From Prorocentrum cordatum (Eukaryota), in contig CAUYUJ010000072.1 in NCBI GenBank assembly GCA_963575745.1, positions 1 to 64,000 of the forward strand: DNA of 64,000 bases. Reading direction: 5' to 3'. The notes beneath the pieces are model-generated. The model saw only the letters and a program-made list of their open reading frames with translations. It searched no databases and was not told the origin of the DNA. This document shows positions 4,502 to 54,289 of this stretch, piece after piece (within the stretch, counting starts at the first letter, position 1; each line of letters starts with the position of its first letter). The translations under genes and the position numbers were made by a program.

Positions 4502-4858
4502 TATTCCGCCACCTGGTGCTCGTCCTCGGCGTCCGCCCCGCCTCCTCTGCCTGGCCGGCGGCGTGGGGCGGGGGGGGGCCCGGCCGCGGAGGGCCTCCGT
4601 CGCGGGGGACCCCTTCTGGGCCAGCTTGCGGCGTCTGAGTCCTCGGCGTAAGGCAAGCGGATTCTGCATGAAAGCGGAAGGAGAAGGAGGAGGAGGAGGA
4701 GGAGGAGGAGGTTTGAGGGAGGAGGGGGAGGAGGAGGAGGAGGAGGAGGTGCGTTGCTGTTGTGGCTCAGTGTTGGAGGTTGTGAAGGGCCGTAGACGCC
4801 CAAGAACCAGCGATTAGCTTTGGCACGTCCGTCGTCCCTCTCGAGGGGGGCGGGGCTA

Positions 4859-4989
4859 TTAGTTGTTTGACCTAAACGGTTGGACCCCGCCCTCCCCAGT
4901 CGGCTTGGGTTTCTTCTCTCCCTGCTCCTGCCTCTGCTTGCCCTTCCCTTTTCCTCTCTCCCGCTCAAGCCTTCGGGGCTCAAAGCCCT
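4859..4989 (+). repeat. Split direct repeat A1 (131 bp)
   Basis: Matches 20101-20231 with one mismatch (gacct vs gtcct). Confidence 0.97.
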
Positions 4990-5042
4990 GGAGCCGACCT
5001 CAGGAGGTCTGGGCGCCCGCGGCGCCCGGAAGCGTGCGTGCC

Positions 5043-8000
5043 ATGGCTGCCCGGCGCCCGGTGCTGGCAGGCCCGGCGCGCGGGCTGGCCGCGCTGGTCA
5101 CCAGCGCAGCCGCCTACGACTGGCGCGGGCCCCTCAGCTCCGCTGTTGCCCGCGCCAGTTGGGGCCACCCGGCTGCGGCCCAGGAGGCCCCGTTCGGGTA
5201 CACCGTGCCGTACTACGACGACTCCGAGTACGGCATGGAGATCGGCGAGCCCGAGGAGGAGGGTGGGGATGCAGGCAGCCCCCAGGCGCCGCGCGACAGT
5301 GGGCCGCCGGGAGCGCCGCCCCCGCCCCCAGCCCAGGCCGCCGGAGGAGTCGACAACGGCAGCGACCCCACCAAGGACCCGGGCAGCGAGGAGTCTTGGG
5401 TGGGCGGCTGGGGTGTCTGGGCGCTGGGATTGAAGCCACTACGTGCGGGCACCTGGGCCTGGCGCCTGAGTGGCATGGGCGGAGTCGCCTACGAGAAGCT
5501 CGACAGCCTTGGGAGCGCCTTCTCCACCCATGCCGAGACAGGCTGGCTGACCAAGGATGGTGGGTGGTTCTTCTATGCTCTCGAGAAGCTGGGCCTGACG
5601 GTCTTCGGGGCCGCTTGGCCTGCCGTGGCATGGACGTTCATCCTCTTGGCTTTCCTGGCAGTGCTGGCCTTCCTCACTCACATCTGTCGTACCCTACTGG
5701 CCCCATGCGCAGCCGCCCTCTGGCTGATCGGTCTACTGGCGCGGTGCACCAAGTGCCGCCGGCGAGAGCCTGGCGATGCAGCTGCCGAAAGGTACCTGCC
5801 GCCGGCTCCGCCTGCCCTTACCCAGATCAATTGGATGGGGCCAGAGACCGGACCAGCCACGACCACGGAGTACTACAGCAAGAAGGTGAAGGGTCGTGGG
5901 ACTGGGAGGCGGCCTTACGACGTGCTAATCAAGATCGACGACCACGTGGCCCGGCTGAAGATCGACCTTTCGGAGCCCAAGCGGATCGACCGGAAGGGCC
6001 TCTGGATAGACTACCTGGCCGCGAAGGGGGCCAGCTCACGCGCACTCCGTCAGAAACTGGAGTCGCTCGAGGGCCGTTCCATTCACCTGTGCCGCGACCT
6101 GGTTTGCAGAGATCAACCTGGAGAAGTTCATTGTAAAGAGTACGCTGCCTTGGATTCCGAGGCGATCGTGGACATCGGCTCCCACGCCAGGTTCACCTCT
6201 TGCCGGGGCGTCTTCCTGCTCTGGCGGACCGTCGCCGACCTGGGGAGGGCCATCTGGAAAGTGATCGTGTTCCTTTACTGCATCCTCTCCTGCGGTTGCT
6301 CCTTTTGCTGCCGGCGACGCCGCCGTCGCAAGACAGGCGCTGCGGAGCCAGGCGTTGCAGGGAGCATCGCAGAAGTTTTGGATCAGGAGTCAGAGTCGGA
6401 GGTGGAGGCCGAGGACAGGCCATGTGAAGCTGTTCGGGTGGGCATCGTTCTACGCGGCGGCGCTCGCCCCTTGGCACCCGACGGTTGCAGGGGCGCCGCG
6501 GAGGCAGAGCCGACCACCCTGCTCTTCGAAGACGGGCAGGCTTCAGACCTCCCGCCACCCAGCGACGGGCGGAATTCGTTCGCCCATCTCTGCGCACACC
6601 GTGCCCAGGTTTACCGAGCGCCCCGGTACCGTGACAAATGTTCGCAGGTGACTTGCTACCGCCAGGCAGTTGGCAACGCAGAGGGCGTGCCACTATGTCT
6701 TCTTCATCTGGGTGGAGAAGCAGGTCGAGCAGCGCAGGCAGCCGCAGCCGCCCAGGGCCGCGGATTCCTCTCGAGCTCGGGCTTGCGGCGTCGGGCGGTT
6801 CGCAGTCGCAGCCCACGGGCGCGCGAGCAGGGCGCCCCAGTCAACGCAGCTCCCCCCGCAGACGGGGTACGGGGACCGGAGGGCCATCGCGGACAAGCAG
6901 CCCCTGGGCAACACCGACGAGAGGCCTCAGCTTCGCCGCGAGGTCCACCTGTTGGTGTCAGGTTCGAAGCGCCGCCTTCTCCGAGGGTGCCCCTCCCGCG
7001 AGACGCCAGCCCCGCCCCCGACGAGGAGACCGAGCAGGGTGACTCTCTCGTACTGCGCGTGCGAGTCCACTGGGCCGCCGGCCCGCAATGGGTTATCTTC
7101 TTGGGGAAGTCCCGTCCAGGGGGAGGGCCCGCCGGAGATGGCAGCGCGACTGTAGTAGACGTGGAGGAGCCGCACTGCAAAGACTACTCGGCGGAAGGCC
7201 AGGAGAACGTCTGCTTCACCCTCATGACCGCGGGGATCGAGTGCGCCCCCGTCGCCGGCGACCAGGGAAGGCTCCCCGCAGGCTACCTGGAGGAGCTCTT
7301 GTATCACCCACCTATCGGGGCCGAGGAGATGGGGATCGGCGTGCACGGCGTCGTCGTGAGCAGCACCATGTGGGAGAAGCTGCGTCCTTGGAACGGGGTC
7401 CCCGTCGGCGGGAAGACCAAGCGTATCGGCCGCCCTCAGTGGGCTCAGCTTCGGGCCCGCGGGGACTTGCTCGTGCACCGGCATCCCGCGGGCACCTCAG
7501 GTGATGCCCCCGGAGTACCACAGCCCACCTCCGACGAGCTGGACACGCAACTCAAGAAGCATTGGGCGAGGCTTGATCGCAGCAGTTCCCCCAAGCCCCC
7601 ATTCGGCGTCGGGTGGGGCCTGGGCGAGGAGGGTGATCTGGCCTCCTCAGCCCCTCGGCGCACTTCACGCAGCCCGGCGGGGAAGGACCACGAAGAAGAG
7701 AACACCGGGGAGGCCATGCTGGGGCTGTACCTCGCCGCTCATGAAGAAGGATCGGACGACGCCTCGGCGCTGCAGAGCGTGGCGGCAGGATACGACGAGG
7801 ACATCACCGTGGTCTTGGAGCATCTCATCAAGTACACCAAGCGTCTCATGCGCAGCAGCGGGACCGAGGAACGGGCCAAGTACCAGGCGCACATCGACAG
7901 GTGGGAAAGAAAGTTGGAGCGGGTTCGAGCCGAAAAAGATGAAGGGGTGAACCCACCCCTCGCTAGTGGCCTCTTGAAGCTAGACACCGAGCGCAAGCCC

Positions 8001-9740
8001 GATGCCAGCCAAGAGCCCAGCCAACCTGGAGATCCCCCTGGGCAGGGCGCCGCCACGAGCGCTCCGCCATTGCCGCCGCCGGCTACCCCGCCTGGCGTGC
8101 GCGTGCCGGGAGCGACTCGTTTGTCTCCGCCAGGTTTGATGCCCGGCCTCGTACCGAATCTCGGGCAGATGTTCACTAACCGGAGCGCTTATGGCCACGG
8201 AGGACTGGTTGAAACGCCAGGGCAGCCAGATCGTAGGTACGCCGCAGGAGCCGGAGAAGGTGAACCCTCAGCCGCTCTTTTCACCTACGCGCAAGTCCTC
8301 CAGAACGGTCAAGAACAGCAGCACCTAGACAACATGCGGCTGCTGCAGGCGGTGGACAGCCTCCGCAGGTCCGGCGAGGAAGAGAAGGTAGCGCAGCGGG
8401 GCACCCTCGGCGCCATCGGACGTGCCGAGGAGCTGGACGTGTGCCTGGCGCGGGGTTGCGACACCCTCGACGTAGAGGTCTGCGGTACCCTGACCGGGCG
8501 GGAGTTGTTCCATGGCCTCAAGCGCGCCTGCGAGCACGCGAAGCACGTGATGCAGGCGGTGAACTGGCCGACGACGGTGACGAACAGGATGGCGCACGGC
8601 ATCGCCGCCTTCTGTTGGGGGGGGCGGGACCACAAGGATCTGGCCGAGTGGTCGATCTCCGTGGCCGATTTTCCCCATTGCAAAGCAGAGGTGTTCGACG
8701 CCTACACCATGCACACCACGTGCAAGCTCGAGCCGCGCCCCCGGCACCCGGTCGTCTTCTCTCAGTGGGTGAGGCAGGCCGAGAACGCCATCACCGTCTT
8801 CGGGCTAGTCTACGGGCGGATGCACGAGCCCGAGCGACGCCGAGCCCTGGAGACCCTCCGCCTTGCCTACGAGGAGGACGACGTGGCCTTCCCAGCAGAC
8901 TATGTGCACAGCCTTTGGGAGGAGCTTGCTGCAACCTGGTGCGAGCAGCTTCGGGAGAAGCGAAGGGAGGTGTGCCGCATCCTGGGGCTCACCAACCCGC
9001 GCCGGGAGGACATCAAAACCATCGCCCTCGCCCCTACAGGGCCGTCTGGGAGTGCGTGGTTGACCTTTCCGAAGGTATACGACCTCGACGCACCGGACGG
9101 GTACTACCAGGTGGCGTGCGTCCCTCGCCAGGCCCGGCGGCTGCAGAGGTTCCTCCATCAGAACCTCCACGCCGGCCCCTCGAGGACCCCCAAGGCTGGG
9201 AAGGCTGACGAACACACCCCAGCAGATCAGGAGGCGCCCACCGGAGCTGGCCCAGGCACTGGAAAGGCAGGGGCCGCCGTCAAGAAGGCTGCTGCCAAGA
9301 AGCGGCCCGCCGCCCGGGCGCACCCAGCAGGGAAGGCGCTGACGTCCAGCGAGATCGGGCGCTCAGTCAAGCACGCCCCCCGGGACAAGAACGGGAAGGT
9401 CATCTGCTGGGACGCCTGCACATGGGCTGGCTGCCCCAAGGCGGCAGGGGCTGGCTGCCCCAAGGCGGCAGGGACTTGCGCCCACTCCCATGAGGCCATC
9501 AAGGGGCTTGGCAGCCTGGACTGGACCGTGCAGGCGCAGCTCATCAGGCGCGGCGGCCTGAAGTCTGGCGCTAAGGTCGACCCCGCCTCGGTCGACGGGC
9601 GGGTAGCTCAGCTCAGGGCCCAGGCCAAGGCCGAAGCAGACAGCAAAAGGGCTGGGGGAGGCGCCGGAGAAGGTCCCGGGGCCCCTGCGGGGGGCAGCCG
9701 AGCGGGAGGCGGCTGTTTGGTCCCCCCCAGCTGCCTTTGA
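5043..9740 (+). CDS. Element segment 1: hydrophobic/membrane-like N-terminus, Cys/His clusters, Gag-like region, CCCH zinc finger
   Basis: First ATG at 5043 in the 1625-aa ORF 4863-9740. Hydrophobic stretches at ~5565-5756 and ~6210-6310. ICWDACTWAGC...CAHSH at ~9402-9492. First ORF of a DIRS-order element, the usual gag position. Confidence 0.8.
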   Translation: MAARRPVLAGPARGLAALVTSAAAYDWRGPLSSAVARASWGHPAAAQEAPFGYTVPYYDDSEYGMEIGEPEEEGGDAGSPQAPRDSGPPGAPPPPPAQAAGGVDNGSDPTKDPGSEESWVGGWGVWALGLKPLRAGTWAWRLSGMGGVAYEKLDSLGSAFSTHAETGWLTKDGGWFFYALEKLGLTVFGAAWPAVAWTFILLAFLAVLAFLTHICRTLLAPCAAALWLIGLLARCTKCRRREPGDAAAERYLPPAPPALTQINWMGPETGPATTTEYYSKKVKGRGTGRRPYDVLIKIDDHVARLKIDLSEPKRIDRKGLWIDYLAAKGASSRALRQKLESLEGRSIHLCRDLVCRDQPGEVHCKEYAALDSEAIVDIGSHARFTSCRGVFLLWRTVADLGRAIWKVIVFLYCILSCGCSFCCRRRRRRKTGAAEPGVAGSIAEVLDQESESEVEAEDRPCEAVRVGIVLRGGARPLAPDGCRGAAEAEPTTLLFEDGQASDLPPPSDGRNSFAHLCAHRAQVYRAPRYRDKCSQVTCYRQAVGNAEGVPLCLLHLGGEAGRAAQAAAAAQGRGFLSSSGLRRRAVRSRSPRAREQGAPVNAAPPADGVRGPEGHRGQAAPGQHRREASASPRGPPVGVRFEAPPSPRVPLPRDASPAPDEETEQGDSLVLRVRVHWAAGPQWVIFLGKSRPGGGPAGDGSATVVDVEEPHCKDYSAEGQENVCFTLMTAGIECAPVAGDQGRLPAGYLEELLYHPPIGAEEMGIGVHGVVVSSTMWEKLRPWNGVPVGGKTKRIGRPQWAQLRARGDLLVHRHPAGTSGDAPGVPQPTSDELDTQLKKHWARLDRSSSPKPPFGVGWGLGEEGDLASSAPRRTSRSPAGKDHEEENTGEAMLGLYLAAHEEGSDDASALQSVAAGYDEDITVVLEHLIKYTKRLMRSSGTEERAKYQAHIDRWERKLERVRAEKDEGVNPPLASGLLKLDTERKPDASQEPSQPGDPPGQGAATSAPPLPPPATPPGVRVPGATRLSPPGLMPGLVPNLGQMFTNRSAYGHGGLVETPGQPDRRYAAGAGEGEPSAALFTYAQVLQNGQEQQHLDNMRLLQAVDSLRRSGEEEKVAQRGTLGAIGRAEELDVCLARGCDTLDVEVCGTLTGRELFHGLKRACEHAKHVMQAVNWPTTVTNRMAHGIAAFCWGGRDHKDLAEWSISVADFPHCKAEVFDAYTMHTTCKLEPRPRHPVVFSQWVRQAENAITVFGLVYGRMHEPERRRALETLRLAYEEDDVAFPADYVHSLWEELAATWCEQLREKRREVCRILGLTNPRREDIKTIALAPTGPSGSAWLTFPKVYDLDAPDGYYQVACVPRQARRLQRFLHQNLHAGPSRTPKAGKADEHTPADQEAPTGAGPGTGKAGAAVKKAAAKKRPAARAHPAGKALTSSEIGRSVKHAPRDKNGKVICWDACTWAGCPKAAGAGCPKAAGTCAHSHEAIKGLGSLDWTVQAQLIRRGGLKSGAKVDPASVDGRVAQLRAQAKAEADSKRAGGGAGEGPGAPAGGSRAGGGCLVPPSCL

Positions 9741-12348
9741 CGAGATTCAGACCACCGCCCTCGAGGAGGAGCTCAGGCAGGCCGTCCAGGGCCCCGAGGA
9801 GGACTGGTTGCTGGACGCCCACGCCAACGCGCCCGCGGTGGAGGGGACCAGTGAGACGACTCATCCCGCCGCTCTCGAAAGATGGAACATCATTGAGAAG
9901 ATCTTGGAGAGCGGGGCCCTCGCGACGCTGGGCGACATCAGCGACTACCTGCATTCACACGCCCTGGCCAGGCTCGCACGCGCCAGCTCAGAGGGCATCT
10001 CCCTGAGCTTGGAGGAAGTACTGCTGGAGGCGACTCGGGACGGGGGGCCAACCCTCGCCGAGGAAGCCGGTCGGGCCCTCGACAGGCTGGGATCAAAGGC
10101 GGGGAGGAGCAGCACTCAGGACCTCAGCATTGGAGGAGCCTCCTGGGACGAGGAGGCTGGAGTTGGCCGCGGGAAGCTCACGGTGCAAGACCAAGACTGG
10201 GACTATCTCGACTTCCAGGACGAGCTTCAGCCCGACGAAGAGATGAGAACCCGGCTCGGCCTCAAGGAAGGCGACGCAGAGCTCAGGCAGTGTCTGGTGC
10301 TCCACATCGCGGCCGCCCTGCTCTGGGGGGATAAGGAGCCTGATGCGCCGGCCGTGAAGGCCCTGGCTGCTCAGCTCCGCCGCGAGTTGTGGGATGGAGC
10401 CACCACCGCCACCGCCGCATTGGGGGGCGCACCTCCCTTCGTCTCACCACGTGAAGCCGAGCTCCGGATGCGCTGCCATGATGTCCAGCACCCGCACCAC
10501 GACAAGGACTTCAGGTGCATCTCGGTCTTCCCCCTGAGTGCCCTCAACACGACCACCGTCCGGGTCTGGAGGATCAACCACTGGAACCAGCTCGAGATCG
10601 ATTCCGTCCTGCCGACGCAGACCAGCGAGAGGGAAGTCCACGTCATGATCCATCGAGGGCATATGCGGGTGCTCAGGCCACCGGTCATCAGCGGCCAGAG
10701 TCCCAACAAGCGAGGCCGGGCATTTGGGGAGATCCTCAAGACCTGGACGCTAGCTGGGAAACCCGTCCGCGAGCTACTCACAGTCGGCTGGGAGATGTAC
10801 CTGGAGTCAGAGGAGGTCGCGGGGCCCGTGATCCCGAGCCGGCCCCCGCCCTGCATGCACTGCAAACGTATGCAGCAGGCTCAGCTCCCAACGCGTGAGG
10901 GCGCCGTCGGGAACCAGGAGCTCGAGGAGGAGGACTTCTCCGGTCTCGCACCACTCCTGCGCAGACCCGCCTTCGCGTGGGGCATCCGCACTCGCGAGAT
11001 CTTCGCAGGGACAGGGAACTGGACCAAGGCGATGCGAGAAGCTGGACTCCAGACGGCTCCGTCCGTCGAGTATTTCCAGGACCCCCTGGCCCAGACCGGG
11101 CCCCAGGAGGAGCACGACGTCCTCGATCCCCAAGTGCGAGAGAGGCTCCTCCTCGACGCTGGGGCAGCGCCAGGCCCCGACGAGGCGAACGTCTACCAGA
11201 TGGCCCCCCCGTGCGCGACCCACTCAGCCTGGTGCCTCAAGAACGGCGGGACCCGCACGTTTGAGCATCCGGACGGCGACGGGACGGTCCAGGCGGAGAT
11301 CGACAGCAACATCATGACCGATTTCGCCGCCGACCTCTGCGAGCGCCTCGACGCCAACGATCGAGAGTGGATGCTCGAGAACACGGCCAGCGACGGACGC
11401 TACCCGAAGATCTGGGACAGGGCCAGGATCAGGCAGCTGCAGAAGCGCACAGGAGCACGGATTATCTCCGTCGCCATGTGCGAGTGGGGGCTAGGGCCCC
11501 CAGAGGAGCCTGCGAAACGGCACCGCAAGCTGACGTTCTGGATGGTCTCGAAGGGCCTCTACCCCTGGGCGCTCTCTCTGGCGAGGCGCTGCACCAACCA
11601 GCACGAACGCGTCGCCCTGGAAGGGCCTCTCCCCTACGACCTGACCCAGGCCCAGATCGACCACTACAACTCCTCCAAGCTCTCCCTCAGCCAGCCCGAG
11701 CAGAAGGACATCCTGAGCCTGACCAATCGTTTAGCCCTGGCAGGCGCGCAGGCTCAGGGTCTCGCCGCAGATACCAAGACCCTGGAAACCCCACAGCTCG
11801 GACCCGAGCTGCTGCGCCCGCTGAACGACCTCGTCGGCAAGCTGGGGCCCGTGAACTTCCACTGGAGCCGGGTCGAACCACGCACCGGGAAGGCCTTCGA
11901 GGACCTCCCGGAGGGCGCCGTGGCCTTGTACTACGGACGTGATCGAGCCGACAATTTCGTGGCCAAGATCTCACACCAGTCGCACCCGTGCCTGCACGGT
12001 GGCGGGCGCATCCCCAGCGGAGCTCCCCCACTGGCCAAGGCACTGCGGGAGGAGTTGAGCACCCTCGGCTTCCAGGTCGGTCAGCGTGGACTACGTCGCA
12101 CCCGCTACGCCGGCCAGTACCCGACGAGGCCGTGCGCTGCCTGGGCCGAGGTCGTCAAGGCTGCGGGAGCGGGGACCCCCCCCGCGAAGCTCCTGAAGAA
12201 GCTTGAGCCCATCGTCACGACGAGGGCCGGAGACAAGATGGCGGCGGGAGCCGGTGACGGGGTTCACCTGGCGGAACCCCCCCCCTCCTTTTCGCTTCCA
12301 GGACGTGCCAGTCACGGAGAAGGAGGCGGAGGAGGACCATCCAGCTGA
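9718..12348 (+). CDS. Element segment 2: putative cysteine protease domain followed by a C5 cytosine methyltransferase-like domain
   Basis: Frame is open upstream of the listed start (WSPPAAFDEIQTTALEEEL from 9718). RQCLVLH at ~10285 and IHRGHM at ~10648. EIFAGTG (motif I, ~11000), MAPPC (motif IV, 11200-11214) and LEN (motif VI, ~11374). Confidence 0.75.
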   Translation, partial: WSPPAAFDEIQTTALEEELRQAVQGPEEDWLLDAHANAPAVEGTSETTHPAALERWNIIEKILESGALATLGDISDYLHSHALARLARASSEGISLSLEEVLLEATRDGGPTLAEEAGRALDRLGSKAGRSSTQDLSIGGASWDEEAGVGRGKLTVQDQDWDYLDFQDELQPDEEMRTRLGLKEGDAELRQCLVLHIAAALLWGDKEPDAPAVKALAAQLRRELWDGATTATAALGGAPPFVSPREAELRMRCHDVQHPHHDKDFRCISVFPLSALNTTTVRVWRINHWNQLEIDSVLPTQTSEREVHVMIHRGHMRVLRPPVISGQSPNKRGRAFGEILKTWTLAGKPVRELLTVGWEMYLESEEVAGPVIPSRPPPCMHCKRMQQAQLPTREGAVGNQELEEEDFSGLAPLLRRPAFAWGIRTREIFAGTGNWTKAMREAGLQTAPSVEYFQDPLAQTGPQEEHDVLDPQVRERLLLDAGAAPGPDEANVYQMAPPCATHSAWCLKNGGTRTFEHPDGDGTVQAEIDSNIMTDFAADLCERLDANDREWMLENTASDGRYPKIWDRARIRQLQKRTGARIISVAMCEWGLGPPEEPAKRHRKLTFWMVSKGLYPWALSLARRCTNQHERVALEGPLPYDLTQAQIDHYNSSKLSLSQPEQKDILSLTNRLALAGAQAQGLAADTKTLETPQLGPELLRPLNDLVGKLGPVNFHWSRVEPRTGKAFEDLPEGAVALYYGRDRADNFVAKISHQSHPCLHGGGRIPSGAPPLAKALREELSTLGFQVGQRGLRRTRYAGQYPTRPCAAWAEVVKAAGAGTPPAKLLKKLEPIVTTRAGDKMAAGAGDGVHLAEPPPSFSLPGRASHGEGGGGGPSS

Positions 12349-15300
12349 GCTCAGAGGATGGCAATGCGCGAACAGAGGCAAGAAGAGAGGAGGGTGGAAA
12401 CGCAACAAGGCGAGAAAGAGGGATCCCGACCGAGGAGCGCCACCACCGGGCCCTGGAGGAGATGGCGGAGACGACGAACCTGGGGGAGACGAAGGAGAAG
12501 GAGAGGAGGAAGAGGAAGAGAAGGAGCCGCCCAGGAGGGTCAAGAAGTCCAGGCAAGCCGAGCAGCAAGCCGATGAGCCAGTCAAGGTGATTCTTCCACA
12601 GCGGGGGGACCGATGGATACCAATCCCGGGGGCCCCCATGTACGCGCACGAGCTCCAGAGCGTCCTCATGACCTGCAGATGGCTGCGCGACGACGTCCTC
12701 AGCCCCGAGGAGCTTCGCCTGTTCGTCTACACCGACGAGGGGGACGCCGCAGGAGCCGAGGGACCTCCCTTAGAAGACGACGATCGTGTCGAGCCCGGGG
12801 AACGCCTTATCCTGTGGATCGGGAAAGAGGACATCGGGAATTGGGCAGCCTGGGCGCCGCGCTGGATCAAGAGGGCCGCGGACGAGGAGCGTGAGGGGGC
12901 GCCGTGGCACCGCAGCGAGGCCACCCCCGCGTCCCACCGCAGCGTCACGCTGAGGATCGCCGACCGCGTCAGCTCCCAGGGCTTTGGCAGCCCAGAGCTT
13001 GGCGCTGTCTGGAACAGGCGGGCCCCTCCGCCGCGCTCAGGAGGGAGGCGTTTCCAGCAGGCTGCCGCCCAAGCCCTCCAGAGACAAAGCCGCGAGGCGC
13101 CCGCTGGAGGGTCCAGCAGCGGAGGCAGCTCAGCCGACAGCATCAAGCTGGAGAGCATAAGGAGGAAGCTCGAAGCCGCCAAGGCCGCCGAGGTAGGTGT
13201 CCTGGAGGAGGAGGAGAAGCGCATCAAGGAGCTGCAGATACAGCTGGCAGAAGCTAAGGAGCGCCGCCGGGCCCGTCGTGCGAGGGATGCCGGCAAGCGC
13301 GAGGCAGAGCAAGCGCAAGCCGGGCATCCCCGCCGGGCCAGCTCAGAACCCCCCAGCGGGCAGGGCGCGGCCACCCCTCTCGATCCAGCCTGGGAGGACG
13401 AGACCCCGTTGCCCTCGGCCATCCTGGATGGGGAGAACAAGTGCCACGAAGCGGAGTGCATCTTGAATAACCTGCCCGGAGTTCCAGCTGACGATCCCAC
13501 GGGACCTGATCGGAGGAGGAAAGCGCGGGAGCTCCTGATCGAGGGCATCAGCTCCATGTTCGAGGACCTACCGCGGAGCTGGACCGGCACCCCCTACGAG
13601 GAGCAAGGCGAGATCGCGAGCGAGTACGTTGACATCCTCGAGAAGCTGACCCGCAAGATGGTGAAAGCAGGGGAGCTGGACGACACCCCCGCAAAGAAGC
13701 GCCAGAGAATCGTGCACGAGAAGGCGGAGGAGGAACCCACGAGCGACGACGCGGACTCCGACGAGAGCTCGGAAGACGAGGTGGTGGAGAAGCCGTACGC
13801 GAGGACCGAGGAGGGAATAGACCCCCCCCTCCCAGAGGATCCAGATCCCCTGAGCCTCTGGCCCGGGCAAGCGGAGGCGGCCAGGCGGAGCAGGGAGGAG
13901 ACTTTCCAGAGCTCTCCTGGGGCCAGCGGCAGCGGAGGCCCCGCCCCCGCCGCAGGTGCAGAGCCACCGCCGAGTGCACCTCCACCGCCCGAGGTACTGG
14001 AAACCCCCTCAGACCCAGCCCAGTATCGGAAGAGCAGACTCCCCGCCACGATCCCCCAGAAGGCCGCGCCAACGAGGAGAAGCCGCTCGGCCATGACAGT
14101 CGTGGAAGCAGCCAGGCGTGCCGCAGGCAGGTCGACGACCTCCAGCGGAGACCCCCCTACTGGGGGAGCCGACGCCGGCAGCGCAGGGACGTCCGGAGAG
14201 AAGCTCGCACTCAGGCCCAAGCCGAGATCACTGGGTGCCCAGCTGCGCGCCACCTCCAAGGGAGAGCCATCGCAGCCCAGACCCCGCCAAGATGATCCAG
14301 CCAGGCCGCTCGTGCCCCCAGATCACGCAGTCAGGCCCCTGGTGAGGCCCCCAGGGTGGCGCCCGCTTCTCCCTGGGCAACTCGCCCGGCCGCCGGGGAT
14401 GCCGCCGATGATGCCGCCCCCTTGGCCGTCCCCTCCGCGGGGGGGCCGCTGTGGGGGACCCCCTTTGGGGGAGGCGCCGGCGGCGCCGAGCGGTGGGGGG
14501 GCGCAGGAGGAGGCGCGTGACTACGTTAAGTGGTGCGCGGACCACCCCACCTTCCAGCCCGAGAAGGTGCCAGAGGTCGTGAAGCGGGGCAACTCACTCC
14601 TCCGCCTCGCCGGCAGCGTCGAGAGGGCTGCCGAGTTGCTGAAGCACGCGCGGGAGGAGGTCCATGGGAACCCACTGGGCGGCGTACTCCAAGAAGACGT
14701 GCAGAAGTCCTTGGACCCGCACCACGCCGCCTACCTCCGGGCCATGGCCACCGGGGGGGTACCCGTGCGACGCACGGAGGAGCGGACGCGCACGCAGGCC
14801 AAGTCGCACTCCTCGGCGGTGGACCACGCGCTGGAGATGTTCGAGAAGGCCTGGAAGGACAGCCGCTACGGCGTTGTCCTCTGGGCCTCGGACGAGGTCG
14901 AGGGCGTGCTCGCCGCCTCGGCGCTGGTCGAGTCGCCCAGCGGGAGGGTCCCCGAGATGTTGCCGGATCGGACCATCTCGAAAGAGGGCCGGCCGATCCA
15001 CGACATGCGGGCGGCCAACGCCTTCTCTCCGAAGGAGCAGCACCCGCCAGCGAAGCAGCCCCTCCACAGGGGGCTTGCGAGGCTCAGCCTCTGGTGGGGG
15101 GCGAGGCACCCGGGCGTCCAGCAGGTGGTGGCGAAGCGCGACGTGGCCAGGGCCTTCAAGTGGCACCACCTGGAGCCAGCTGCCGTGCCAGAGTTCGGGA
15201 CGACGCTCTCGGGCAGGGAGGTCGGGGTGCCAGGGCGAGTTATCCTGATCCACGGCGTGCTGGTCTTCGGCTGGGCCGGCAGCCCGGGCGAGTACATGGC

Positions 15301-17764
15301 GTTCGCCTGGGCGGCCAAGAGCGAGCACGAGAGGAGGAAGCCGCCGGCGCCCAGGATCAACGATGCCGTCAGGTACGCCTCCAAGTGGCTCATGGACGAC
15401 GGGGTCGTCCTCGAGCCGCTGGTGGGCCTCCGACCCTGGCTCTCGGCCGAGGAGCTCGACGGGGCCATGAAGCGAGTCTGGGGCCCGGACGCAGTTAACG
15501 AGGAGAAACTGGACGTCGAGGGGGAGTTCGCGGCAGAGCAGTTGATCTGGGGACTCCACATGAACTTCGACACGAAGGTGGTCAGGCTCCCAGAACCCAA
15601 ATGCATCAAGGCTCAGTACCTGCTCGCCCTCCCGGATCTCAGAGGATCCAGGCGGGTCCCGCTGAAGGTCGCCCAAGAGCTGCGAGGCTGTGCCCAGTTC
15701 TGGGCGTCAGCACAGCCAGCGCTGCGCCCCGAGCTCCCCGCCCTGGACCGACTCCTCAGCAGCGGGACGAGCTGGGCAGAACCGAAGGGTACGCCTGAGG
15801 AAGTCGAGCTCGCCTGGGAGGAGTGGGGCGCGTCAGTGGGGTTTCTGAGGATGCTCTTCGACGTCCCGGAGGCCTGGAGCACGACCTCCCAAGCCAGCTT
15901 CACGCAGGCCCTGTCGGTGCGCGAACGCCTCGCCTTGCCAGGGACAGCGCGTACCACACGGTGGACGGGCGGAGATGCTACCACCTCCTCGATCGGTGCC
16001 ATCGACTGGGGGAGCGCAACTGCAGGGGATGCCGCGCCGACGCCGGAGTACATGGCCACGGACGCCGGACCATTGCTCGAGGCCCTGAGTCACGCGGTCA
16101 CAGGCGAGAGTGGCGAGGAAGGCTGGATCATAGCGGTGGTCGAGCTGCTGGCGGTGGTCGCGTTGGCCACGAAGCAGGGCTCGAAGTGGGAAGGCGAGTT
16201 GGTATTTTACGTCACGGACAACCAGAATGTGAAGGCCTGGCTCACCAAGAGAAGCCCCAAGAACGCCCTGGCCCGCCACCTGATACGTCTGGTGGGAAGG
16301 ATCGAAGCCATGCACGGATGCCGCATCGTCTCGTTCTTCGTGAGGACCTACCATAATGAAGTGGCCGACTGGCTTACCCGCGAAGAGGTCAAGCAGGTTC
16401 ACGACACGCTGGCCACCTCAGGGTGGACGCGCCTAGAGCCTCCCGCAGCCTGGGGCCAGATACTGGAGGACGCCAAGGAGCGCCTTCTCAGGCTCCCTGG
16501 AGAGACGGGCCCCGTGGCCGAGGCTGCCCTTCGACACCGAGCACTTCAGCGAGGACATGGACTGCCGAGAGCTCTCCCGCTCCGCGGGAAGCTGGGTCGA
16601 GAAGTGGGGAGTCTCATCAACCCGTACACGAAGGCCTTCGAGCGCCTCGGGGGACCGGAGCCCGAGGAGAACCAGAAGGTGGGATGGCTCATGGCGTCGC
16701 TGCCCCTAGACCCCAAGGGCCGAGAGATGGAGGCTTTCTTCGTCGCAGCAACTCAGGAGAGCCCTGAAGTGGCGGTCGTGGACGCCCCGACCGGGGTAGA
16801 CACAGCCAGGTTCGAGAAGGCACTCAAGCAGCTGGGCTACATGGTCTCGAAGTTCGAGGTGGTCTGCACGCACCACGGGGACGCCGCGACGCGGACCAGG
16901 CGGGTGCTCGTGGGCGGACGTCGGAAAGCGGGGGTGGGCCTGGCGTGCATTAACATGCCGCCGGCCTGCTCCCGAGCTGCCAGCGTCAAGCCTCTCCTGG
17001 AGAAGGGGAAGGACCACCTGTGGCTCGACCAACAAGGCGAAGTGTCATGGGACCCCCGCATCCAGTCCACCAGCGACCCCCTCCTCCTCAAGCCGGTCGG
17101 GCACCTCAAGAAGGATGGAGCGAAGCGCCTGATCTACAGCGAGGAGGGGCCGGTGGGCACAATCCGCTGGCCTGGGGCGGAGCTCCAAGGACCCGGGGCG
17201 ACGCTCCTCCGTGTCACCGGAGGGGGCGGAGGCACGGTCCGCGCCCTGACGCCCCAAGAGGTTTGGCGAGTGCAGGGAGGGACCAACGACGAGTGGACCC
17301 ACTTGCGAGCCCAGGGCTTCACCGAGGACGAACTCCTGAAGGGCGCCGCCAGGGCGCTCCCGCCGAGGACCGCGGAGGCAGTGCTGACCGCGGCGACAGA
17401 GGCGCTCGACAGCACCAGCACGCAGCGGGCCGGGGTGTGCCATGATCCAGAGGAGCAAGCTGCGTGGGAGGCCACCAAGCGCTGGTTCCGCGCCTGGGCC
17501 CAGGCACCGGATCAGCCCGCCTTGGCACTGGCAGCAGAGGGCGAGGTGAGGGCCGGAGGAGCGCTCACCGACGAGATGCACAAGAACCGCCGGCGCGCCC
17601 AGGCAGTCCGCTTCAAGATGATCGACGAGGACACGCTCATCGGACCCCGCGAGGCCCCAGCCGCCGAGAAGGTTAAGCTGGATAAAAGTGTGACACGCTC
17701 GAAAAGTCCTCGCAAAAAAAAAGCCCTCGGCGTGCCAAAGAGATGCCAGCAACCGACCTGGTGA
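12203..17764 (+). CDS. Element segment 3: low-complexity/coiled-coil linker, reverse transcriptase, RNase H, degenerate C5-MTase-like domain
   Basis: RT: KRDVARAF (Asp at 15140), LVFGWAGSP (~15260), WLMDDG (~15386). DIRS-type RNase H: GDAT, VELLA, VTDN, NEVADWLTR (15970-16380). MTase C-terminal motifs: HGDAATRTRRVLVG and VRALTPQEVWRVQG. Confidence 0.9.
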   Translation: MSPSSRRGPETRWRREPVTGFTWRNPPPPFRFQDVPVTEKEAEEDHPAELRGWQCANRGKKRGGWKRNKARKRDPDRGAPPPGPGGDGGDDEPGGDEGEGEEEEEEKEPPRRVKKSRQAEQQADEPVKVILPQRGDRWIPIPGAPMYAHELQSVLMTCRWLRDDVLSPEELRLFVYTDEGDAAGAEGPPLEDDDRVEPGERLILWIGKEDIGNWAAWAPRWIKRAADEEREGAPWHRSEATPASHRSVTLRIADRVSSQGFGSPELGAVWNRRAPPPRSGGRRFQQAAAQALQRQSREAPAGGSSSGGSSADSIKLESIRRKLEAAKAAEVGVLEEEEKRIKELQIQLAEAKERRRARRARDAGKREAEQAQAGHPRRASSEPPSGQGAATPLDPAWEDETPLPSAILDGENKCHEAECILNNLPGVPADDPTGPDRRRKARELLIEGISSMFEDLPRSWTGTPYEEQGEIASEYVDILEKLTRKMVKAGELDDTPAKKRQRIVHEKAEEEPTSDDADSDESSEDEVVEKPYARTEEGIDPPLPEDPDPLSLWPGQAEAARRSREETFQSSPGASGSGGPAPAAGAEPPPSAPPPPEVLETPSDPAQYRKSRLPATIPQKAAPTRRSRSAMTVVEAARRAAGRSTTSSGDPPTGGADAGSAGTSGEKLALRPKPRSLGAQLRATSKGEPSQPRPRQDDPARPLVPPDHAVRPLVRPPGWRPLLPGQLARPPGMPPMMPPPWPSPPRGGRCGGPPLGEAPAAPSGGGAQEEARDYVKWCADHPTFQPEKVPEVVKRGNSLLRLAGSVERAAELLKHAREEVHGNPLGGVLQEDVQKSLDPHHAAYLRAMATGGVPVRRTEERTRTQAKSHSSAVDHALEMFEKAWKDSRYGVVLWASDEVEGVLAASALVESPSGRVPEMLPDRTISKEGRPIHDMRAANAFSPKEQHPPAKQPLHRGLARLSLWWGARHPGVQQVVAKRDVARAFKWHHLEPAAVPEFGTTLSGREVGVPGRVILIHGVLVFGWAGSPGEYMAFAWAAKSEHERRKPPAPRINDAVRYASKWLMDDGVVLEPLVGLRPWLSAEELDGAMKRVWGPDAVNEEKLDVEGEFAAEQLIWGLHMNFDTKVVRLPEPKCIKAQYLLALPDLRGSRRVPLKVAQELRGCAQFWASAQPALRPELPALDRLLSSGTSWAEPKGTPEEVELAWEEWGASVGFLRMLFDVPEAWSTTSQASFTQALSVRERLALPGTARTTRWTGGDATTSSIGAIDWGSATAGDAAPTPEYMATDAGPLLEALSHAVTGESGEEGWIIAVVELLAVVALATKQGSKWEGELVFYVTDNQNVKAWLTKRSPKNALARHLIRLVGRIEAMHGCRIVSFFVRTYHNEVADWLTREEVKQVHDTLATSGWTRLEPPAAWGQILEDAKERLLRLPGETGPVAEAALRHRALQRGHGLPRALPLRGKLGREVGSLINPYTKAFERLGGPEPEENQKVGWLMASLPLDPKGREMEAFFVAATQESPEVAVVDAPTGVDTARFEKALKQLGYMVSKFEVVCTHHGDAATRTRRVLVGGRRKAGVGLACINMPPACSRAASVKPLLEKGKDHLWLDQQGEVSWDPRIQSTSDPLLLKPVGHLKKDGAKRLIYSEEGPVGTIRWPGAELQGPGATLLRVTGGGGGTVRALTPQEVWRVQGGTNDEWTHLRAQGFTEDELLKGAARALPPRTAEAVLTAATEALDSTSTQRAGVCHDPEEQAAWEATKRWFRAWAQAPDQPALALAAEGEVRAGGALTDEMHKNRRRAQAVRFKMIDEDTLIGPREAPAAEKVKLDKSVTRSKSPRKKKALGVPKRCQQPTW

Positions 17765-17881
17765 GGCCGCAAGCGCTGGGCGTAGCTCGGAAGACCAACT
17801 ACCCCGGAAAAGGAGCTCGCCCCCGCCGGCCGCGCTGAGCCTGGCGGAGCCAACTACGCCGGCTGGTTCGCGCAGCAGAAG

Positions 17882-18976
17882 ATGGAGGCCATGCTGCAGA
17901 AACTCAGTGAAGGCACAAGGGCAGGTTACGAGGGAGGATGGCGGCTCTGGGTTGCCGCGCGCCAGGCGCAGGGGCTCAGCCCTTGGCTCCCAGGACGTGA
18001 TCGCGAGGAGCGCCTGGCCGATGAGGAGGCGCCCATCAACTTCGCCGTCCTCTTAGCGCGGGTCGTCGCGAGGACCGAGGGGACCATCAAGCAGAAGCTC
18101 TTCGCGGTGCGCTACGCCCACCTGGTGGCTGGCTACTCGGACCCCCTGCTCCACAGAGGCCGCCTCTGGAGCACGCTGGCAGGGCTGAAACGCTGGCAGG
18201 GGCCCGAGACCAAGCGGAAGAAGCCCGTCACGCCAGCCATGCTCGAATGGCTCCGCGGCTTTCTCCAGCAGGAGGCCAAGCTCCCCGAGGAGGATGCCGT
18301 GGTCATCTGGGCGGCCATCGTGACAGCGTTTTTCTTCCTCCTGAGGGCCTCAGAGTACCTCCTCCAGGACGGGCGCTCGTGGTCCTTCGAGCGCGTGCTG
18401 CACGGGGAGGACGTGGAGCCCAAGAAGGAGGGGAGGCGCGTGGCCAGCTTCCAGGACGCCGACGAGATGGTGATCTACATCAAGGGCAGCAAGACGGACC
18501 AGCTCAACGTCGGGACGGTGAGGAACCACTACCGCGCCGGCACATCGCTCTGCCCGATCGCGGCGATGGAGCGGCTCCAGGCTCACCATCCTCAGCGGAT
18601 AAAGGGCACCGAGGAACGGCTGCCCCTCTTCCGCTGGGCGTCAGGTACACCGATCCGCAGGGCAGAGGTGCAGCACTTCCTGACGGTCGCGGGGCTGGCC
18701 GCCGGCCTCTCCAGGGAAGAGATCGGTAGCCACTCCCTGAGGATCGGCGGGGCAACTGCAATGTACCACGTGACCGAGGACCTCTCCCGAGTGCGCCGAT
18801 TCGGGCGCTGGCAGTCGGACGCGTTCCACGGCTACCTGTGGGAGTCGCACGAGCCGATGAAGGGCATCTCCGGCAAGATGGCCAGGGACAACTCCTCGTT
18901 GACCAACCCGGCGAAGGACAGCGCCTCCAGCAGAGCTGCCGCCGGCGCCGAGAGCGCCAGGCGTGAGAGCCCATGA
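17882..18976 (+). CDS. Tyrosine recombinase (phage-integrase family) of the retrotransposon
   Basis: Full catalytic set R-K-H-R-W-Y: FFLLRASEY (R 18344), GSKTDQ, SHSLRIGGAT (18728-18757), FGRWQS, HGYL (Y 18833). Confidence 0.95.
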   Translation: MEAMLQKLSEGTRAGYEGGWRLWVAARQAQGLSPWLPGRDREERLADEEAPINFAVLLARVVARTEGTIKQKLFAVRYAHLVAGYSDPLLHRGRLWSTLAGLKRWQGPETKRKKPVTPAMLEWLRGFLQQEAKLPEEDAVVIWAAIVTAFFFLLRASEYLLQDGRSWSFERVLHGEDVEPKKEGRRVASFQDADEMVIYIKGSKTDQLNVGTVRNHYRAGTSLCPIAAMERLQAHHPQRIKGTEERLPLFRWASGTPIRRAEVQHFLTVAGLAAGLSREEIGSHSLRIGGATAMYHVTEDLSRVRRFGRWQSDAFHGYLWESHEPMKGISGKMARDNSSLTNPAKDSASSRAAAGAESARRESP

Positions 18977-19872
18977 GAGGCCGCAGCGGGCGCCGCCGGT
19001 GCTTACGCACCTGGCGTGCGCCCGACCCAAGCCGCCGGCTTCGCGCCGTGCGTGCTTGGGTGCAGCCACCAGCCACCTGCCCCGCCGGCGAGTAGCCGCG
19101 CGCTCGCAGGGTACACCCGCCCGTGCCTTCAGCACTGGCTAATACCTCACGGCAAAAGCATGCGTGCAGGTCCGTCCGTCAGGGCCCCACTAGTGCCTGG
19201 GATACTGTGGGTCCCCTTGCAGCCCTGGACGAGGACCACGCTGGAACCCGCCTGGCACGCCGGCTCTCCATGCCAAGCCTGGGCGTGCCGGGCATACTGA
19301 CGCCAGCTGTGCTACAGTAGCTGGCAGTCTGACGGCCCGGGTGGCCGCAGCGCTCGAATTCATGCGCAGGCGCGGGCCCGCGCCCCAGCGCCGGCCCGGG
19401 GAACCCCCTCTGTCAGGGGCCGGACCCTGCCCGCCCCGTGCACTTTGGGCACCTGCGGAGGCGGGGAGCCGGGAGATCTGGAGGCCGCGGCGCAGACGGG
19501 GACGCCAAGTGCCGGCCCGCGCCAAGCGCCAGCGACGACACCCTCGGGCCTCAGCCCGAGGTCGGGCTCCGCCGGCAATCCAGGTACCGGCGCGAGCCCA
19601 AGGCCTAGCCTCACGGAGGACAGCCGCGCGCGCCGGCATCAGTTGCCTGGCGGCAGTCGGCAGACAGGGGGCCAGTCGGGCCCCCACACGCACGCCGGCG
19701 CGCACGCCGGGCGATGCGTGACTCAGTGCCTAGACGGTGCCGGCAACACAACGCCTGGCACCCAGTTTTGGCGACGCCCATCAGGGCGCCCACACAGCAC
19801 GCCGGCGCGTAGCACCCGCCAGGCGGCCAGTGTGCGGGGGCACTGGCAGCAGCACCAGTATTATAGAACAAA

Positions 19873-20100
19873 GGCGGCGAGGCCCGCTTCGCGTGGCGGA
19901 AGGAGGGACCCGCCTGGCGTGTCATCGCCGGCGGGAGGAGCGCGCGGCCAGCGCAGCAGCAAAATGGGGGGGGCTGCACCGCTGCCGCCATCATCGTCAT
20001 CGTCTCCTGAGGGCCCGCTTCAACCGCTTCGCGGCTGGCACGTCCCGCGGCCTTAAAGCAGGCCGCGCTTTCGCTAGCGCCGTACTGTGGGGGCGGGGTC
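19873..20100 (+). repeat. Split direct repeat B1 (228 bp)
   Basis: Matches 20299-20526 with two C/T differences; abuts A2 directly. Confidence 0.97.
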
Positions 20101-20231
20101 TTAGTTGTTTGTCCTAAACGGTTGGACCCCGCCCTCCCCAGTCGGCTTGGGTTTCTTCTCTCCCTGCTCCTGCCTCTGCTTGCCCTTCCCTTTTCCTCTC
20201 TCCCGCTCAAGCCTTCGGGGCTCAAAGCCCT
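20101..20231 (+). repeat. Split direct repeat A2
   Basis: Copy of 4859-4989. Confidence 0.97.
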
Positions 20232-20298
20232 CCCAGGGCCCAAAGGGGCCCTCTTTTGCCCGCCCACCCTGGGCTTTGCCTCGGTGTCCTACGGCACC

Positions 20299-20526
20299 GG
20301 CGGCGAGGCCCGCTTCGCGTGGCGGAAGGAGGGACCCGCCTGGCGTGTCATCGCCGGCGGGAGGAGCGTGCGGCCAGCGCAGCAGCAAAATGGGGGGGGC
20401 TGCACCGCTGCCGCCATCATCGTCATCGTCTCCTGAGGGCCCGCCTCAACCGCTTCGCGGCTGGCACGTCCCGCGGCCTTAAAGCAGGCCGCGCTTTCGC
20501 TAGCGCCGTACTGTGGGGGCGGGGTC
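20299..20526 (+). repeat. Split direct repeat B2 (element 3' end)
   Basis: Copy of 19873-20100. Confidence 0.97.
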
Positions 20527-20910
20527 GGGTCTATCGGGTATAGCCAGGACCCCGGGTAAGGGGGCCCGGTTAGTGGTAGGGCCCTGGGGCCCCTCAATCG
20601 GCCAGATTCATTAAACCAGGTTTGCCGTAACTGGTGTTTTTCGGGTGACGGCAGTTCCGGTTCGTGGAAATGAGGCGGGGGGGCGCCCCCGGTACAAATC
20701 ACTAAACCAGGTTCCACTAAACCCAGTTTTGCCAACGCCCGAGTCTAACTCACCATCAACGCGCACGGTGGATCTATCCCCGCAGTCACCTGACATCTTT
20801 CCTGACAGCGCCGTTCAGGCCTGAGTTCTTGCCAGCCCGTGCGCCCCTGGGGGCGCCCCAGGTACCTGACGTCGGCCACGGAGATGGGCGTGGCGCTCGG
20901 CGGGCTGCTC

Positions 20911-21166
20911 GTTCAAGCAGTGGCGAAGCGTCCCGGCTCGCCTATAGCCCCACCAAACAATGTTCTAAGAACCTTTTGTGGTTCCCACGAAATGTTCTTA
21001 GAACATTTATGTCTGGGACTGTCTTGTTTTAGCACGGGCTTATGTTCTAAGAACATTGTTTTTCCCAACCATCCTGTGGTGTTGGGTCCTCGTTTTGAAG
21101 AGACGGCGCCCCGCGTTCCTCACCTCCTCCTCCTCCTCCCCCCCCCTCCCTCCTCCCATCATCATC

Positions 21167-21198
<32 letters not shown>

Positions 21199-21202
21199 CA
21201 CC

Positions 21203-21236
<34 letters not shown>

Positions 21237-24041: not shown

Positions 24042-24739
24042 ATCGACGGCTTGGCGAACTCAAAGCAACAATGGTGGCGGAGACCGATGACCACACAAGT
24101 GATTTATTTCAAGAAGTGGTTGGCTGGCAGGAGCGTTTCAACACCAACACCCAGACTGATGACGATTGATTACAAGCTAGACAGGACGCACTCGCCCACT
24201 CCCGGGAACATCTACGGCAACAAATGGTTGAGATGCGAAAGTAGTTGTTTTGCCACGAGCGATCGATACCAACCAAGGATTCTGAGGAGATGGCCGCATT
24301 CGATCACATCTCAGACCCCACCATCCTCGTGACGAGCCTCACCGAGTTTGTGGCCGTCGGAGGCTTCAAGAGATCCCTATCGGACTGGTTGGGGGCAGCA
24401 GGTATCACAGAGGAACTGTACAAAGCGGTGGGCAGCAGCCCGAGCAAACGGTTCGTGCTTCAAATGTGCGGCAACCGGGACTCAGCTCAAAGAACAAAAA
24501 GCGCAGCTAGACTTTCGCTTCGGTTGGAAAGTTAACGCTGGAGACAGTTCGATAAGCGCATGCCCCAGATCATAAAGCATCCCCCCCTTAAGACCTGAGT
24601 GTTGGTTATCTCCTGCCAATACAGTTTTGGTCCGAACTTCATTATCACAGAGGGAAAGTGCGGATCGTTCATTGGATCCCCTTGCTGCGTCATCCTCATG
24701 CACATGAGCATTGCTACCATCATTCAGATCAGAAGCTAC

Positions 24740-26720
<1,981 letters not shown>

Positions 26721-29089: not shown

Positions 29090-29915
<826 letters not shown>

Positions 29916-54212: not shown

Positions 54213-54289
54213 AATTGTTTTTTGTTCGGGAGTGTGGGGGGCCAGGGGCGCCCACTGCTTCCACCATGGGGTCCTGAAGAAGAGTTGTC

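Follow-up and report, generated by a model that had tools for sequence, protein, structure and literature searches.

A 15.7-kb tyrosine-recombinase retroelement with a predicted multi-domain polyprotein in Prorocentrum cordatum

Termini and coding content of the element

This report deals with a large retroelement in a stretch of 64,000 nucleotides from the dinoflagellate Prorocentrum cordatum (contig CAUYUJ010000072.1 of the GenBank assembly GCA_963575745.1, positions 1 to 64,000), which is called the window in the following. All coordinates refer to this window and all features of the element lie on the + strand. The element spans positions 4859-20526 (15,668 bp) and carries at its ends split direct repeats in the order A1...B1-A2-B2. 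We consider it very likely that it represents a recently inserted, coding-damaged copy of a DIRS-order retrotransposon from a dinoflagellate lineage of elements of 11 to 16 kb. The 5' repeat A1 (4859..4989) starts with TTAGTTGTTTG and is identical to A2 (20101..20231) apart from 1/131 mismatches. A2 directly abuts B1 (19873..20100), which equals B2 (20299..20526) with 2/228 mismatches (99.1%), and a spacer of 67 nt (20232-20298) separates A2 from B2. The match of A1 to A2 reported by BLAST comprises 143 nt at 97.9% identity, 12 flanking bases included. Both mismatch counts had been given in the first-pass annotation of the stretch and were reproduced at exact coordinates. The termini are thereby of the unusual kind that serves as a criterion for the DIRS order, i.e., A1...B1-A2-B2 and not plain long terminal repeats (LTRs). 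The B|A junction, in which position 20100 is joined to position 4859, is present in contigs of all four public runs considered (X1-X4). Copies of the element are numerous and diverged in each of these runs, with contigs that are 90-99% alike and that differ mainly by transitions. Within the element neither internal repeats nor a second set of termini were found, and elsewhere in the 64,000 nt of the window no further copy of it is present.

Approximately 13.9 kb between the repeats are coding on the + strand and fall into four stop-to-stop frames: ORF (open reading frame) A (P0001; 4863-9740, 1625 codons, first ATG at 5043), ORF B (P0002; 9607-12348, 913 codons), a third frame (12197-17764, 1855 codons) and a fourth frame encoding the recombinase (P0004; 17786-18976, 396 codons). 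The G+C content is 67.6% in the element and 62% in the window overall. In all four frames it is highest at the third codon position (GC3, 77-87%), intermediate at the first (GC1, 65-70%) and lowest at the second (GC2, 49-55%), which is the order expected for real coding sequence. The nearly continuous coding sequence described earlier was recovered in its extent, but the intactness noted for the ends does not apply to the coding part: instead of a single ORF, the window copy has coding sequence in three reading frames that are disturbed by four indels, and the recombinase is preceded by two stops in frame.

The breaks become apparent in comparison with a relative, the metagenomic locus L001, whose ORF aligns to the window across all of them, following frame 0 to 9650, frame 1 in 9718-12291 and frame 2 thereafter. 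Two of the frame changes are of the +1 type and are located at approximately 9710 and in a run of nine C (C9) at 12277-12285. At the first break (9700..9715), between frames 0 and 1, the loose contig ends seen at 9710 in X1 and X2 correspond to five additional bases by which the two frames would be joined. At the second (12277..12285), related contigs contain C8, joining frame 1 to frame 2, and the variant with one base fewer at 12277 makes up the entire depth in X3 and X4, each represented by one contig, and a minority in X1 and X2. At the junction of Pol and recombinase (17714..17811), two A runs, A9 (17714-17722) and A4 (17808-17811), flank the stretch 17723-17808, which contains both stops (17762-17764 and 17783-17785) and resembles L001 only in another frame; one base fewer at 17808 is found in all depth of X1 (2 contigs) and in none of the depth of X2-X4. 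For three of these four sites, contigs of related copies offer a variant that is in frame, and the frame breaks are copy-specific. Assembly error may be the source of the breaks at three of the four sites, since these are all homopolymers, while the five-base difference at 9710 is not of that kind. Instead of simple decay, the arrangement at the Pol/recombinase junction might alternatively reflect a -1 slippage at the A9 run in copies with the shorter A run at 17808, in which the recombinase would lie in the -1 frame immediately behind the A9 run.

Domains of the encoded protein

For the segment comprising the reverse transcriptase (RT), RNase H and a second methyltransferase fold (MT2), the structure of window 14474-17596 was predicted from an alignment of 24 sequences with a mean predicted local distance difference test (pLDDT) score of 78.6. 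The RT (14660..15913) was assigned by fold and motifs, with LMDD as motif C. Foldseek matched the model to the RT of Moloney murine leukemia virus (MMLV; 4mh8, E 2.5e-10) and also to the RTs of cauliflower mosaic virus, foamy virus, human immunodeficiency virus and Ty3. In VIA, the model reached Z 18.3 with the Ty3 RT (4ol8_A, 329 aligned) and Z 16.2 with the fingers and palm of the MMLV enzyme (7uyn_A, 234/248 aligned), whereas the RTs of retrons, diversity-generating retroelements, telomerase, R2 and group II introns scored only Z 8.5-10.8. Because the Ty3 and MMLV values are far above these, we assign the RT to the LTR-retroelement type. Conservation was found in motifs A, B and C, with the Asp of motif A and the DD of motif C each kept in 21 of 21 sequences. 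RNase H (15950..16408) follows directly after the RT, fits RNase H1 (4e19_A) at Z 11.5 with 126/133 residues aligned, and its conserved catalytic residues D/E/D/D are kept in 18/19, 18/18, 18/18 and 16/16 sequences, respectively.

By fold search, MT2 (16571..17422) was recognized as another C5 methyltransferase fold, which includes a part for target recognition. Its best partners in VIA were M.HhaI (10mh_A, Z 19.8, 268/327 aligned) and M.MpeI (Z 19.5); no Dam chain appeared among the best 50 matches listed, an absence that does not exclude Dam. Inspected by eye, motifs VIII, IX and X are kept and D-x-P is conserved at the presumed place of motif IV, where, with motif IV assigned by eye, none of the sampled homologues has a Cys, so that MT2 is probably catalytically inactive. 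In the window copy, the glycines of motif I have degenerated as well. The tyrosine recombinase (17864..18976) was matched by the Pfam family Phage_integrase at E 1.4e-4 and 22.2 bits, which is below the cut-off of 27.1, and the residues R...K...HxxR...W...Y can be read by eye in P0004. The recombinase has 116 homologues. In a set of 24 homologues 8 match Phage_integrase, as do 7 among 15 ORFs of the loci. For the four ORFs of the element, the weak match to this family is all that Pfam returned; its families for RT (RVT_1), RNase H, OTU, DNA methylase and integrases were not hit.

For ORF B, a structure was predicted from an alignment of 95 sequences (mean pLDDT 73), in which residues 85-430 and 445-670 are confident. 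Residues 169-407, corresponding to window 10111..10827, match five OTU structures at Z 7.8-8.2, the best of which is OTUD3 (4bou_A, Z 8.2, 134/141 aligned), followed over the same stretch of the model by Cezanne, TRABID, OTUD2 and A20 (Z 7.8-8.1). The putative catalytic residues are Cys229 (10291-10293), kept in 52/55 sequences and opening the helix 229-239, and His352 (10660-10662), kept in 58/63 and opening the strand 352-357. As a conserved Cys at a helix start together with a His at a strand start is the papain/OTU arrangement, the region, which had been annotated only as a 'QC...H' domain, is assigned with moderate confidence to a predicted OTU-like cysteine-protease fold. The Pfam OTU family is matched by 0 of the 95 members of the ORF B family at E <= 0.1.

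Downstream of it lies MT1 (10939..11646), with a predicted C5 DNA methyltransferase fold and the motifs I (FAGTG), IV (PPC) and VI (ENT); the C-terminal motif follows at 12088-12216, beyond an insertion of 147 residues. In Foldseek, all 49 matches listed for MT1 (ORF B residues 445-712) are C5 methyltransferases, with DIM2 (9baq_A) as the best at E 8.2e-6. DNMT3B reached Z 10.6 (204 aligned), a second fold search listed C5 methyltransferases in 50 of 50 rows, and the fold ties DNMT3B, DNMT1 and M.HhaI (Z 10.0-10.7). Gly468, Cys536 and Glu591 of the motifs are conserved in 55/57, 54/62 and 45/51 sequences, respectively. The model thus gives MT1 the fold and the catalytic motifs of a C5 DNA methyltransferase, for which enzymatic activity is predicted. 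The insertion of about 147 residues (window 11647-12087) is seen relative to the Durusdinium protein P0016 and is shared by P0055, P0078 and P0089. Between MT1 and the RT, a low-complexity or coiled linker (12362..14473) is poorly conserved (32% identity to L001) and much shorter in the relatives of 11-12 kb.

The N-terminal half of the polyprotein was described by motif, hydropathy and conservation. Its start (5043..5588) comprises the first ATG, a signal-peptide-like beginning and a Trp/Gly-rich stretch, as judged by eye, and is followed by a membrane-like region (5589..6362) in a Kyte-Doolittle scan, for which phmmer found 11 homologues. Hydrophobic stretches at residues 243-296 and 457-485 of P0001 are each followed by a Cys/Arg-rich tail and enclose a conserved domain of 160 residues; the first of the two positions is hydrophobic in homologues, too. 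In all seven ORFs of relatives, a hydrophobic signal-peptide-like leader precedes N-x-S/T sites and a hydrophobic anchor. Further downstream, a Cys/His-rich motif, LCxHHxQxY...KCxVxxC...GVPLCxxH (6465..6722), is conserved in homologues, as is a domain with invariant residues that we call 'Gag-like' by its position only (8370..9272; 39 homologues by phmmer), for which no fold or family match was obtained and a profile search of the PDB came back empty. A CCCH zinc-finger motif (9405..9491) is formed by C1515, C1524, C1539 and H1543 of P0001; the four residues are invariant in 24 of 24 aligned sequences and the spacing C-x8-C-x5/6-C-x3-H is found in all seven locus ORFs. The finger of the window copy contains, at approximately 9430-9475, a tandem duplication of seven residues (GCPKAAG x2) that is missing in L001 and other relatives. 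A precomputed protein-database label, PF26692.1, is attached to 12 of 12 N-terminal homologues and to P0016 and was not returned by the Pfam copy scanned here; part of the 'Gag-like' region may already be covered by a Pfam family. Taken over the whole element, the order of domains in the first-pass annotation was right and the predicted folds sharpen its names, 'MTase' becoming a C5 methyltransferase and 'MTase-like' a second C5 fold, while its tyrosine-recombinase retroelement is borne out by RT and RNase H folds and by the Pfam hit to the recombinase.

Relatives in dinoflagellates and metagenomes

For ORF B alone, relatives at E <= 1e-3 comprise 666 cluster representatives. Among named proteins, those nearest to the element are entries of Prorocentrum cordatum called 'unnamed protein product' (15 of 117 matches listed, up to 94% identity), and more distant homologues occur in Polarella, Durusdinium and Symbiodinium (Symbiodinium microadriaticum), in agreement with a dinoflagellate host. 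A protein of Durusdinium trenchii with 2935 residues is collinear with the element from residue 535 of ORF A to the recombinase, and another protein, P0033 (3270 aa), is collinear from the N-terminal membrane region to the recombinase. Metagenome contigs were scanned with the RT alignment, and 58 of 80 candidate loci were confirmed. Among the 22 loci of at least 9 kb, 16 contain Gag-like domain, OTU and RT in this order, 15 of them with MT1 as well. The same type of search in a viral contig collection gave 0 confirmed relatives.

Several relatives have the coding sequence uninterrupted. In L001, which is 62% identical in the RT, the membrane-like N-terminus, the recombinase and everything between them lie in one frame of 4,871 codons without stop; the locus comprises at least 15.8 kb and has A1, B1, A2 and B2 in the same layout. 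Other single ORFs comprise 3,541 (L013), 3,626 (L025) and 3,002 (L002) codons, and the recombinase shares the stop-free frame in L001, L013 and L025. Of 17 loci inspected, 6 have the repeat layout completely or partially (L001, L023, L025, L028, L033 and L035). L023 (11.4 kb), L028 (11.1 kb) and L033 (12.6 kb) are bounded by split direct repeats, of which L025 and L035 show only a part. The first 11 bases of the element, TTAGTTGTTTG (window 4859-4869), are identical at L001:45-55 at an overall DNA identity of 67%, and distant relatives begin with TTGGAGCTTAG or TTTTGGCATTTAG; judged from these sequences, the conserved start may be a conserved terminal site.

These relatives also bear on the question whether the 5' cargo belongs to the element at all, as the first-pass annotation had held on the basis of the single copy. 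One could regard the locus as a composite of a short DIRS element, reaching from RT to recombinase, and an unrelated gene or element nested or captured at 5043-14400, a reading which the three coding frames and the poorly conserved linker would suit. The same order, the same repeats and a single frame are found in independent relatives at 30-62% identity, the 5' part recurs collinearly in proteins of Durusdinium, Polarella and Symbiodinium and in the 16 loci mentioned above, and the element has no internal repeats or additional termini. The composite reading is already contradicted by these observations and retains a negligible probability, and the refuting condition named in the first-pass annotation, a consensus without 5043-14400, fails. 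The polyprotein proposed earlier accordingly holds for the family, in which L001, L013 and L025 have single ORFs, but not for the broken copy in the window.

Accessory modules are swapped among sub-lineages, and MT2 is one of them. Between RNase H and recombinase, MT2 is replaced by a Tpt1/KptA RNA 2'-phosphotransferase in L006:5853-7853, in L008:10663-14883 and in 3 of 24 proteins (including P0014 and P0017), with domain matches at E down to 3.5e-28. In addition, a DnaJ domain follows the recombinase in-frame in L002:1190-10192 (residues 2319-2379) and in 2 of 24 proteins (P0011 and P0015), at E 6e-13 to 6e-14.

Comparison with known systems, interpretation and surroundings

The textbook DIRS-order element is, to our knowledge, a small retrotransposon that encodes no protease and has separate ORFs. 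Ngaro elements, which Goodwin and Poulter reportedly described in 2004, are said to be short and to have A1...B1-A2-B2 repeats and a recombinase downstream of RT/RNase H; in both the repeats and the place of the recombinase the present element would resemble them. It differs from them by its methyltransferase folds, since Ngaro is listed without a methyltransferase in a 2011 overview (Piednoel et al., 2011; PMC3266345). With the PAT-like and DIRS1-like elements treated there it has in common the order of RT, RNase H and methyltransferase followed by a tyrosine recombinase and an RT of the Ty3/Gypsy type, and its split direct repeats are as in PAT (PMC3266345). According to the same source, DIRS1-like elements are all smaller than 6 kb, and PAT-like and DIRS1-like elements have separate or overlapping gag, pol and tyrosine recombinase ORFs as well as a Dam-like adenine methylase. 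The element of the window with its 15,668 bp, the relatives of 11.1-12.6 kb and L001 with at least 15.8 kb are therefore far larger, as had been noted at first sight; the family has single ORFs of 3,002-4,871 codons, its post-RNase H domain best matches a C5-cytosine methylase fold, and protease-like, methylase and membrane modules are added.

The closest known systems are the Symbiodinium DIRS elements, for which the text of the original study reports the layout A-coding-B-A-B, an RT invisible to Pfam and a Pol that includes a cytosine methyltransferase (de Mendoza et al., 2018; PMC5890265). As far as this text goes, SymbioDIRS-Dnmt3 and the element share the dinoflagellate host, this layout, the RT missed by Pfam, many diverged copies, a DNMT-type domain in the same Pol ORF as the RT, and a tyrosine recombinase. 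It is nevertheless rather unlikely that we are dealing with a mere member of the published SymbioDIRS-Dnmt3 or Symbiodinium 'DIRS without DNMT' families with nothing beyond the 2018 description, a reading to which these likenesses, the transcribed 5' region reported there (PMC5890265) and the homologues in Symbiodinium microadriaticum and Durusdinium trenchii lend some weight. The DNMTs of SymbioDIRS were detected by Pfam PF00145 (PMC5890265), while the element has two methylase folds, one before the RT and one after RNase H, which are both invisible to this family, with 0/95, 0/24 and 0/15 relatives matching it. The recombinase has a separate ORF in the published elements (PMC5890265) and shares the ORF in L001, L013 and L025, the window copy having it cut off by two stops. 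Finally, the OTU-like fold, the 'Gag-like' domain with its CCCH finger, the membrane-like N-terminus and the second methylase fold go without mention in the text of PMC5890265, from which this distinction is drawn. The distinct lineage claimed at first thus has to be qualified, as the Symbiodinium elements share layout, RT and DNMT, and it stands with respect to the OTU-like and membrane modules, the twin methylase folds and the single ORF. No published description of a single giant polyprotein, a membrane N-terminus or twin methylase folds in a DIRS-order element was found in the literature covered, which did not include Repbase, Dfam or the figures and main supplement of the 2018 study, and part of the architecture may already be on file.

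OTU-like modules themselves are not peculiar to this family. OTU domains occur in proteins of tymoviruses, arteriviruses and nairoviruses, and an OTU-like protease has reportedly been found in Ginger transposons. For Helentrons, OTU-like proteases are documented (PMC6431247). All of these have, like the element, a papain-like OTU fold in a large element-encoded protein, but none is a tyrosine-recombinase retrotransposon, and the literature searched contained no OTU domain linked with a DIRS-order element.

The protease-like fold and the membrane-like N-terminus are also what stands behind the term 'virus-like' used in the first-pass annotation, for which the viral contigs with their 0 relatives gave no backing. 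If the locus were the endogenized form of an infectious agent, retro-transcribing, associated with membranes and equipped with a tyrosine recombinase (a 'DIRS-derived virus'), this could account for the signal-peptide-like start, the N-x-S/T sites and the hydrophobic anchor in 7 of 7 ORFs of relatives, for a protease-like domain within one polyprotein and for the spread of the family over several dinoflagellate genera. No capsid or fusion-protein fold emerged among the folds predicted for ORF B and for RT-RNase H-MT2, the membrane part is the N-terminus of a polyprotein, unlike a separate env gene, and the element is present in genomes in high copy number and vertically diverged, so that we deem this origin very improbable. 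A related and broader idea, which is speculative and to which we likewise give little credence, is that a branch of the DIRS order is moving independently from retrotransposon towards virus: it would produce a giant polyprotein in the style of flaviviruses with signal peptide, glycosylated ectodomain and membrane anchor, would bring its own OTU processing and cytosine methylation, and some of its members would perhaps be transmissible from cell to cell. The idea is testable and would amount to a second, integrase-independent route towards virus-like retroelements.

We therefore prefer to view the locus as a damaged DIRS-order retrotransposon copy of this dinoflagellate lineage, against which several points have to be set. 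Its placement inside the DIRS order follows from architecture and not from a phylogeny of RT or recombinase. In the relatives, Pfam families for RT, RNase H, OTU and DNA methylase were matched by 0/95, 0/24 and 0/15 proteins or ORFs, and PDB sequence searches with P0002 and P0003 as well as profile searches with two alignments returned nothing meaningful, and homologue P0029 had no usable hit in the Protein Atlas; because Pfam and PDB sequence searches were blank, the domain names derive from predicted folds and motifs. For the OTU-like fold, Z values of about 8 are only middling, and such values are, according to the note of the tool, common for unrelated models. Signal peptide and membrane spans were proposed from hydropathy and by eye, the 'Gag' label from position and the zinc finger. 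Moreover, the window copy as assembled is unable to make the polyprotein, whose cleavage we infer together with every step of the replication cycle.

How an undamaged member of this DIRS-order lineage might multiply can be drawn by analogy with elements of the order, which reportedly replicate by the scheme of Poulter and Goodwin. A transcript from A1 towards the 3' repeats would be translated into one polyprotein, the N-terminus of which would insert into a membrane, and the OTU-like domain would cut the polyprotein, remove ubiquitin, or both. Following synthesis of complementary DNA by RT and RNase H, the internal B1-A2 junction would act as template or homology by which the ends are restored, giving either a circle or some equivalent product with joined ends and a B|A junction, and the recombinase would put this form into the chromosome. 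MT2 would probably be only a DNA-binding module, whereas MT1 would probably methylate the newly made DNA at cytosines, a role suggested for the Symbiodinium elements in the text of PMC5890265. Depletion of CpG was considered as a sign of self-methylation and was dropped, as the observed/expected ratio of CpG is 0.86 in the element and 0.78-0.82 around it and hence not below the surroundings; this result neither supports nor excludes that MT1 methylates the DNA of the element.

Known from 666 representatives of protein clusters and from 58 loci in metagenomes, the lineage is widespread. Its elements are two- to threefold larger than a textbook DIRS element and code everything including the integration enzyme as one protein of 3,500-4,900 residues, to which a membrane anchor has been added as well as a protease-like fold and a pair of methylase folds that standard domain libraries miss. 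Annotations of dinoflagellate genomes will mislabel such elements as huge 'unnamed proteins'. The lineage is also a natural test case for the idea that element-encoded cytosine methylases and deubiquitinase-like proteases serve transposition.

The surroundings of the element add some minor observations. Imperfect short direct repeats flank it in the window, GGGGCTA (4852-4858) and GGGTCTA (20527-20533), and likewise flank L033 (CAAATAGAT and CAATAGAT), and they are absent from L023 and L028. A requirement for homology between target and B end was suggested by GGGGGCGGGG in the 5' flank of the window, which is like the B end, and was rejected, as 0 of the 3 other loci with two flanks (L023, L028 and L033) show it; among these loci and the window no consistent target homology was found. 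A (GGA)n microsatellite lies immediately upstream of the element (4667-4762), and downstream there are a (CAT/CAC)n run (21139-21257) and a perfect direct repeat of 64 nt within 21263-21500 (starts at 21263 and 21437). The dinoflagellate spliced-leader motif was not found in the window. In positions 24001-30000, the G+C content falls to 43-53%, compared with about 62% elsewhere, and the GC skew is strongly negative. Another, unrelated retroelement is located on the + strand at 53725-56199, where the first of two adjacent long frames matches the Pfam family RVT_1 (E 7.8e-7, just under the cut-off).

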